A stretch of DNA of 44,244 bases from a virus (lineage: Duplodnaviria > Heunggongvirae > Uroviricota > Caudoviricetes): IMG/VR virus record IMGVR_UViG_2896595138_000007, positions 1 through 44,244 of that record. The stretch is one strand, 5' to 3'. Both the position numbers and the translations under genes were made by a program. A model generated the notes under the pieces. The model was not told the DNA's origin. It saw only the letters and a list, made by a program, of their open reading frames with translations, and made no database searches. Positions 10,884 to 11,234 of this stretch are shown one piece after another. Each line of letters opens with the position of its first letter. Within the stretch, counting starts at the first letter, position 1.

Positions 10884-11234
10884 TTATTTACATGCATTAA
10901 CACTATCAGCAAAAATTTTTGGCGTTAATGCTGGTACGCGTTCATAAAGAGTAAAACTACTGCCATTTCCTGCTTTTTTGATATCAAGCACAACATCATA
11001 CCCACCCATAGCCTGTGGAACTAAAAGGCTTACCCCATTCTCAATAGGAATGGATGTTATAGGTGTTCCATTACCAGCCCATTGTCTGGATATGCAGCCT
11101 GACAATTCATCAATATTTTTTAATGAATTACCTTCCATTACAGGCTTGCCGGATTTTACGTAATCCAAAGATTTACATCCTGTTAAGGCAATAATCGTGC
11201 AGAATAAAATCGTTTTGTTCATATAGCTAACCAA
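10884..11234 (-). CDS. Lipoprotein moron between tail genes I and J; candidate superinfection-exclusion factor
   Basis: MNKTILFCTIIALTGC is a signal peptide with lipobox LTGC; the gene lies in an AT-rich block in the otherwise GC-rich tail operon; lambda has no gene here. Confidence 0.6.
   Translation of the reverse strand: MVSYMNKTILFCTIIALTGCKSLDYVKSGKPVMEGNSLKNIDELSGCISRQWAGNGTPITSIPIENGVSLLVPQAMGGYDVVLDIKKAGNGSSFTLYERVPALTPKIFADSVNACK

Follow-up and report, generated by a model that had tools for sequence, protein, structure and literature searches.

The AT-rich DNA that separates tail genes I and J in this lambda-like E. coli prophage is a moron for an envelope lipoprotein. It is a feature of an ordinary kind, here with a product from an uncharacterised and fairly widespread family. 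The window, i.e., the whole stretch of 44,244 nucleotides that was analysed (IMG/VR record IMGVR_UViG_2896595138_000007), carries the gene within a lambda-like tail operon. As to its function, we tentatively propose (probability roughly 0.4) an exclusion-type envelope protein, whose target would not be dictated by the receptor-binding domain of the tail tip protein J.

The lipoprotein gene and its insertion site

The listed ORF at 10884..11234 (minus strand, 116 aa) opens at a TTG and has the ATG at 11222 as its fifth codon. This ATG is almost certainly the true start, and the TTG at 11234 a mechanical ORF coordinate only. Read from the ATG, the coding sequence occupies 10884..11222 on the minus strand (stop codon TAA at 10884-10886) and specifies the 112-aa protein MNKTILFCTIIALTGCKSLDYVKSGKPVMEGNSLKNIDELSGCISRQWAGNGTPITSIPIENGVSLLVPQAMGGYDVVLDIKKAGNGSSFTLYERVPALTPKIFADSVNACK. 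An entry identical to it over its full length (100%), WP_153274582.1, is labelled ‘hypothetical protein’ in RefSeq and is annotated in E. coli MMC-J-0020 and O55:H7 CB9615. The N-terminus reads MNKTILFCTIIALTG up to the lipobox cysteine and continues with CKS from that residue on. Residues 1-15 form a signal peptide with a basic n-region (K3) and a hydrophobic h-region, and the lipobox L13-T14-G15-C16 agrees with the pattern [LVI][ASTVI][GAS]C of bacterial lipoproteins processed by the Lgt/Lsp/Lnt pathway. Cys16, which is predicted to be lipidated, is encoded at 11175-11177, and the mature protein of about 96-97 aa contains two more conserved cysteines, C43 and C111. A simple lipoprotein-signal rule set accepted 51 of 61 aligned relatives, and the lipobox cysteine was found in all 61. 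An earlier note on this DNA had described a lipoprotein of roughly 110 aa with an LTGC lipobox; these features support the description. In E. coli, the Lol-avoidance rule holds that Asp at position +2 bars sorting to the outer membrane. Position +2 is Lys here and A, S, T, G, V, K, E or L across the family, never D, and the protein is predicted by this criterion to be an outer-membrane lipoprotein.

The gene stands out from the operon in its base composition, with a GC content of 0.37 in the ORF and about 0.3 in its leader against 0.56 and 0.60 in the 2-kb flanks. Pairwise alignment with the I-J region of phage lambda, together with the GC profile, places the insert at 10865..11294 (minus strand), where about 430 bp replace 12 bp of the 60-bp lambda spacer. 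Morons have been defined as extra DNA of deviant GC content, with its own promoter and terminator and expressed from the prophage (Cumby et al., PMC3594210). Both the additional DNA, between two genes that lie side by side in related phages, and the deviant composition are evident here, and the gene is likewise AT-richer than its surroundings in other enterobacterial cassettes. As regards an own promoter, only weak candidates were found. The AT-rich leader (11223..11294, minus strand, 72 nt), which runs from the gpI stop codon (11295-11297) to the lipoprotein ATG and is not present in lambda, contains a weak sigma-70-like candidate in a relaxed scan (TTTACT-17 nt-AATATT, with the -10 ending 38 nt upstream of the ATG) and a weak Shine-Dalgarno sequence. 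A promoter scan of the lipoprotein strand gave nothing above the tool threshold.

Downstream, a GC-rich hairpin with a T-run lies at 10840..10860 (minus strand; GAGCCGCC-TTT-GGGCGGCTT, then TGTTGTTT), 23 nt past the lipoprotein stop and 22 nt ahead of the J start. Its predicted fold is terminator-like (-22 kcal/mol, z -3.6). A homologous hairpin is present in lambda’s own I-J spacer (J02459, about 15465-15490), where there is no gene. The window’s hairpin can therefore not be counted as brought in by the insert, and the idea that it is the moron’s own terminator was rejected for this locus. The same structure resembles terminators found 3' of the lipoprotein gene in other phages, such as GAGCCGCCTACGGGCGGTTTTTTT in Pseudomonas phage phiAH14a. 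The hairpin shared with lambda could be left over from a cassette that was lost, or could mark a favoured site of recombination.

The neighbouring genes are those of a lambda-like tail. Tail assembly gene I (11295..11935, minus strand; Pfam Lambda_tail_I, PHROG tail proteins) is split into two ORFs by a 1-nt homopolymer deletion at 11577 (CCCC->CCC). On the other side, the 5' part of the tail tip gene J (8293..10817, minus strand; aa 1-~842) matches NCBIfam lambda_TipJ and the Pfam J domains, and the 3' part with the C-terminal receptor-binding domain (5982..6854, minus strand; Pfam Ig_GpJ_C) carries a further 1-nt homopolymer deletion at 6573. The earlier note’s picture of a moron, AT-rich within a GC-rich tail operon and placed between I and J, is thus confirmed by Lambda_tail_I upstream, lambda TipJ downstream and the foreign composition, as well as by the absence of the gene from lambda and from the I-J junction of most relatives and by the movement of the family between junctions described below.

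The two parts of J are separated by an IS4-family insertion sequence (6855..8279, minus strand, 1425 bp; Pfam DDE_Tnp_1 and Nterm_IS4), which the earlier note had missed. Its ends are inverted repeats (TAATGCC.../...GGCATTA), and it is flanked by a 13-bp target duplication, CTCCAGTCTGCTG, at 6842-6854 and 8280-8292. The element interrupts J at about codon 846 and is absent from relatives; as it stands, the prophage is therefore without a functional tail tip. Without the element, J shares 97% identity with residues 1-938 of lambda J, and 53% over its last ~200 aa. The earlier note had called this receptor-binding domain non-lambda. The divergence of the last ~200 aa agrees with that, but the domain still belongs to Ig_GpJ_C, and by its sequence the J C-terminus is a divergent allele of lambda’s own domain family.

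Compared with 98%-identical prophages, the window has eight 1-nt deletions, at 6573, 11577, 12282, 12580, 15701, 17076, 17408 and 20217. All eight fall in short homopolymers (CCCC->CCC, GGGGG->GGGG, TTT->TT) of C or G, and once of T, and they break up the reading frames of J, I, K, H and further late genes while leaving the lipoprotein ORF untouched. Prophage decay was considered as the cause of the split I, K, H and J frames and was rejected, as 8/8 indels are 1-nt homopolymer deletions. Most simply, they are sequencing or assembly errors, and the prophage is therefore probably less degraded than it appears. Downstream of J, a Lom/Ail-family outer-membrane protein gene (5316-5915, full-length Pfam Ail_Lom match) and a side tail fibre gene (3206-5257, with a prophage tail fibre N-terminal domain) complete the usual lambda-like arrangement, lom being a second envelope moron in the same operon.

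Family, predicted fold and movement between junctions

The lipoprotein matches PHROG 914 (function unknown) over its full length, with residues 1-112 aligned to positions 1-118 of the 118-position profile (E 5.7e-33). When 1.84 billion cluster representatives were searched exhaustively with a profile, 116 relatives, nearly all of 105-125 aa, were recovered at E <= 0.001. In 61 of these, which were aligned and share 17-50% identity with the query, there is no variation at the lipobox Cys, C43 or C111 and hardly any at P27, W48 and G63. Named relatives come from Yersinia, Shimwellia, Hafnia, Serratia, Enterobacter, Jejubacter and Dyella, and their source databases call them only ‘hypothetical protein’, ‘lipoprotein’ or, under a JGI label, ‘YceK’. 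Pfam had no match for the lipoprotein or the 61 aligned relatives, NCBIfam none for the lipoprotein or its relatives, and a profile search of all PDB sequences none for the family; a search on the accessions and family ids found no literature. Among 57 full-length copies from the E. coli clade there are 13 nucleotide alleles, which differ by 11 synonymous and 6 nonsynonymous changes. As nonsynonymous sites are about three times more numerous, these counts indicate purifying selection. The gene is real and selected, and its product is a Sec/Lsp-type lipoprotein.

An AlphaFold2 model, built on a seven-sequence alignment (mean pLDDT 84, pTM 0.76), has a disordered signal peptide and tether followed by a helix (19-24), a strand, a helix (37-50), four strands and a final helix (103-111). 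The mature domain is predicted to adopt a compact alpha/beta fold, helix-grip/TBP-like and similar to Flpp3 and the N-terminal domain of BamC. C43 and C111 are positioned in the two long helices of the model and probably form a disulfide. Two other roles were considered. Periplasmic lysozyme inhibitors (MliC, PliC, Ivy) gave no Pfam match and were absent among the fold matches listed. An o-spanin role was set aside, as o-spanins are generally much shorter than this lipoprotein and proline-rich; in phiAH14a, Rz1 is annotated in the lysis cassette and not in the tail operon.

The gene was found in 337 of 5426 complete E. coli genomes (~6%), usually as a single copy. Carriers include the uropathogen model UTI89, the species type strain ATCC 11775, O55:H7 CB9615, and APEC and ETEC lineages; the sole annotation of the gene is ‘hypothetical protein’, and it is assigned to no Pfam family. 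At the I-J junction, an insert was present in 334 of the 4142 E. coli genomes that match the I/J flanks, and in the E. coli clade the order I, lipoprotein, J was kept in 58/58 IMG/VR prophage contigs. In 50,697 deposited phage genomes, tblastn detected only relatives of ~30% identity and nothing closer; a further distant member (P0060) had no match in deposited phage genomes.

Relatives at 47-61% identity occupy other junctions of otherwise collinear lambda-like tail operons. They are found at T-H, before the tape measure gene H, in Enterobacter prophages, at M-L, and at K-I in several metagenomic and Kluyvera prophages; a narrow-alignment search of species-representative genomes gave one locus only, in Kluyvera. 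The ~30% identical relatives in the isolated phages mEpX2, HK140, Fraca and the Klebsiella phage ST846-OXA48phi9.1 are also located at K-I. Across T-H, M-L, K-I and I-J, the gene always has the orientation of the tail genes, and a canonical hairpin with a T-run follows within 60 nt of its 3' end in 10 of 11 other distinct cassettes. The upstream gap is just 6-31 nt in mEpX2, Fraca and the Klebsiella phage, which have good Shine-Dalgarno sequences. The gene is a horizontally mobile accessory cassette, AT-rich, with non-coding spacers on both sides and a hairpin terminator almost always downstream, and it provides a clean, easily tested case of a cassette that has moved among four sites within a single conserved operon.

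More distant members (about 20-28% identity) are found outside tail operons. In Dyella-like bacteria, a ~20% identical member (5001-5342 of the contig segments from Dyella and related metagenomes) is a conserved chromosomal gene between ppnN-like and gspH/uvrB, with the same neighbourhood in 24 contigs. Two others are located in a prophage early region and in an integrative island, respectively. The conserved chromosomal relatives in Dyella suggest a cellular origin of the phage-borne lipoprotein. The gene behaves as a cellular envelope lipoprotein that was captured by phages and is shuffled as a moron.

Unrelated lipoproteins were observed at the same junctions. phi80 morF at I-J (JX871397, locus 6105-6638) encodes a lipobox protein (...LLGVLFISGC...) that is not related to the family, as does p83 of phiAH14a at K-I (locus 24239-24661). 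It seems that lipoprotein genes from several unrelated families have accumulated at the K-I-J junctions of lambda-like tail operons. In phiAH14a (KU708004), moreover, the locus 6950-7948 comprises a family member, p33, and after it a duplicate of tail assembly gene I, p32. The latter is 79% identical to the tail-operon copy p84; the annotated start of p33 cuts away the signal peptide. This p33-p32 pair is located in the immunity region beside the repressor and on the same strand, and is either a recombination remnant or a pair expressed in the lysogen.

Possible functions

The protein is exported and lipid-anchored and would therefore have no part in cytoplasmic tail assembly; we infer that its site of action is the envelope, either that of the lysogen or that of the infected cell. 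There it may serve as an envelope-modifying accessory protein that shields the carrier cell from incoming phages, i.e., superinfection exclusion in the broad sense. Its target would be exposed to the periplasm and would not be set by the receptor-binding domain of the phage’s own J; it could be a post-adsorption step or an envelope component used by other phages, rather than the phage’s own receptor plugged in the manner of Cor or Llp. Expression could come from the weak leader promoter during lysogeny, from read-through of the late operon, or from both.

Exclusion proteins encoded in tail operons have precedents in HK97 gp15 and Cor (PMC3594210) and in the mEpimmI Lpp proteins (PMC11893012). 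That the lipoprotein is independent of the receptor-binding domain is apparent from a comparison of 37 loci with a complete J and the window’s reconstructed J, in which the last 200 aa of J fall into at least four classes beside a 98-100% identical lipoprotein. Three of these classes are 50-68% identical to each other, and the fourth has no detectable similarity to them. Conversely, the window’s J class is present in O55:H7 CB9615 and, at >=95% identity, in 44 deposited phages, including 2H10, Turner and Stx1a/Stx2a-converting phages, and none of these 44 had a lipoprotein match. The lipoprotein allele does not co-vary with the receptor-binding allele. Furthermore, a genuine cor is located after J in mEpX2, HK140 and Fraca, in addition to the family member at K-I, and the family is therefore no substitute for Cor. 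The mobility across T-H, M-L, K-I and I-J, the terminator after 10/11 cassettes and a fold common to other envelope lipoproteins (Flpp3, BamC N-domain) are also in favour of exclusion. Against it, the leader scans revealed no convincing sigma-70 promoter, and the upstream gaps are short in mEpX2, Fraca and the Klebsiella phage, so that expression in the lysogen is a conjecture. PADLOC defence models gave no match at E <= 0.1 for five family members, the Dyella chromosomal relatives point to a cellular envelope role that is not necessarily phage-related, and the link with the tail operon could merely mark where insertions are tolerated.

The same Dyella relatives, and the other members in non-tail contexts, are what could be expected of a lysogenic-conversion or host-fitness factor unrelated to phages, comparable to lambda Bor, Lom and Gifsy-2 SodCI. 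Such a protein could support survival of the lysogen (serum, stress, colonisation) or bind a small ligand in the cavity of its helix-grip fold. The best fold neighbours, the lipoprotein Flpp3 of Francisella (a virulence determinant according to its deposition) and other ligand binders of the helix-grip/Bet v 1-like type, are in line with this, as is the presence of the gene in the pathogenic lineages UTI89, O55:H7, APEC and ETEC. Morons commonly encode fitness factors, and Lom, Bor and SodCI are prophage precedents (PMC3594210). The fold class shared with Flpp3 and BamC is very widespread, though, and no function can therefore be transferred from it. We regard a fitness role as possible, if on the unlikely side.

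A late lytic function is rather improbable. The protein would then be produced together with the tail proteins, and would keep progeny phages off cell debris or aid their release, a purpose that Cor and Llp have been described as serving in lytic phages (PMC11990801). Constant co-orientation with the tail genes, the 6-31 nt gaps with good Shine-Dalgarno sequences and the lack of a strong own promoter are all compatible with such co-transcription, but the conserved downstream terminator and the foreign composition fit an independent unit better, and most close prophage relatives do without the gene, as seen from the 334 inserts in 4142 matching genomes.

The earlier note likened the protein to Cor and Llp, prophage lipoproteins encoded at comparable positions that block the phage’s own receptor. 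In such a model, it would bind the periplasmic face of the receptor used by its own J and block adsorption or DNA entry of the same or related phages. As an outer-membrane lipoprotein encoded in a tail module, it does share its general type with Cor, Llp and the mEp Lpp proteins (PMC11893012), and its ...C-K end with an internal Cys is superficially that of Cor. In the homology check proposed in the note, similarity to phi80 Cor and T5 Llp ended at the signal peptide. With phi80 Cor, BLASTP gave E 0.034 for the lipobox region only, and the profile alignment covered the signal peptide and ~12 residues past the Cys; likeness to T5 Llp, and to mEp021 Lpp021 and the mEp044 type-C Lpp, was likewise confined to the signal peptide. 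The mature domain of Cor/Llp/Lpp proteins measures about 55-65 aa, compared with about 96-97 aa here, and the Llp structures 8a60_B and 7qjf_A, present in the PDB library, were absent among the fold matches listed for the lipoprotein. With Cor there is no homology of the mature protein and no common position downstream of J or the tail fibre genes, and with Llp neither sequence similarity past the signal peptide nor a fold match among those listed; membership of either family is rejected. The position argument fails too: genes of the Cor/Llp type adjoin the receptor-binding end of the tail fibre gene, whereas this gene is 3.4 kb from that end of J and has its relatives at T-H, M-L and K-I elsewhere. 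Sequence, fold, position, the several J classes and the 44 same-class phages without a match, and coexistence with cor in mEpX2, HK140 and Fraca all count against this proposal, and it is unlikely that the protein blocks the phage’s own receptor.

It is about equally doubtful that the family is a periplasmic factor which neutralises a conserved tail-tip component of incoming lambda-like phages and involves no masking of receptors. Candidate targets would be the NlpC/P60-JAB protein K, the membrane-active C-terminus of I, and the tape measure. T4 Spackle inhibits the tail lysozyme, and the TP-J34 lipoprotein Ltp targets the tape measure; a tail-tip inhibitor of this kind would be their counterpart in a Gram-negative siphophage. 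It would explain why the gene moves together with the M-L-K-I block and is mostly found right next to K and I, and also its indifference to the J receptor-binding allele and its coexistence with Cor. The duplicated lipoprotein-plus-I segment beside the repressor in phiAH14a (p33 with p32) suggests the same. Finally, a chance or decaying ORF without function, to which the bare ‘hypothetical protein’ annotation and the want of literature might point, has a negligible likelihood and is already contradicted by the conservation data, with the length, the lipobox and the three Cys kept down to ~20% identity among 116 cluster representatives, and by the confident structure prediction and the excess of synonymous over nonsynonymous changes (11 > 6).

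If the lipoprotein excludes phages, as we favour, then it would do so independently of the carrier’s receptor choice and by a mechanism distinct from that of Cor and Llp, which would be relevant to host-range prediction. If it is a fitness factor, then it would add one more prophage-borne envelope protein to those of pathogenic lineages.

Comparison with known systems

The closest parallels in general type are Cor (phi80, N15, HK022, T1), a tail-operon moron that excludes phages (PMC3594210), and Llp (T5). Like the present protein, they are small phage lipoproteins with a lipobox, predicted to reside in the outer membrane, encoded in tail or host-recognition modules and equipped with extra cysteines. 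They differ in their ~60-aa mature domain, and the Llp fold is not the alpha/beta helix-grip predicted here; the common ...C-K end with an internal Cys is a superficial likeness to Cor. The Lpp lipoproteins of mEpimmI phages, whose genes lie in the structural cluster and for which phage exclusion has been demonstrated experimentally (PMC11893012), are comparable as structural-cluster lipoproteins of temperate coliphages with J-type tail tips (Lpp021, Lpp010). Unlike our lipoprotein, they have 72-82 aa, are encoded downstream of J on the opposite strand, and form sequence types that track the receptor used.

Francisella Flpp3/DUF3568 and the BamC N-terminal domain are neighbours of the predicted fold at 6-10% identity, and Pfam DUF3568 itself had no match in any of the 61 family members. 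phi80 morF (177 aa) and phiAH14a p83 (140 aa) share with the lipoprotein the I-J or K-I junction, the orientation and the lipobox, and are uncharacterised as well, but they are longer and unrelated in sequence.

HK97 gp15, encoded at T-H, excludes phages at the level of the inner membrane and leaves their receptors untouched (PMC3594210). It resembles the Enterobacter homologue of the lipoprotein in being an accessory gene at the T-H junction of a lambda-like tail operon, and differs from the lipoprotein by its description as a small inner-membrane protein (PMC3594210). Exclusion that is independent of the outer-membrane receptor, as with gp15, is the kind of mechanism that our data leave open for the lipoprotein.
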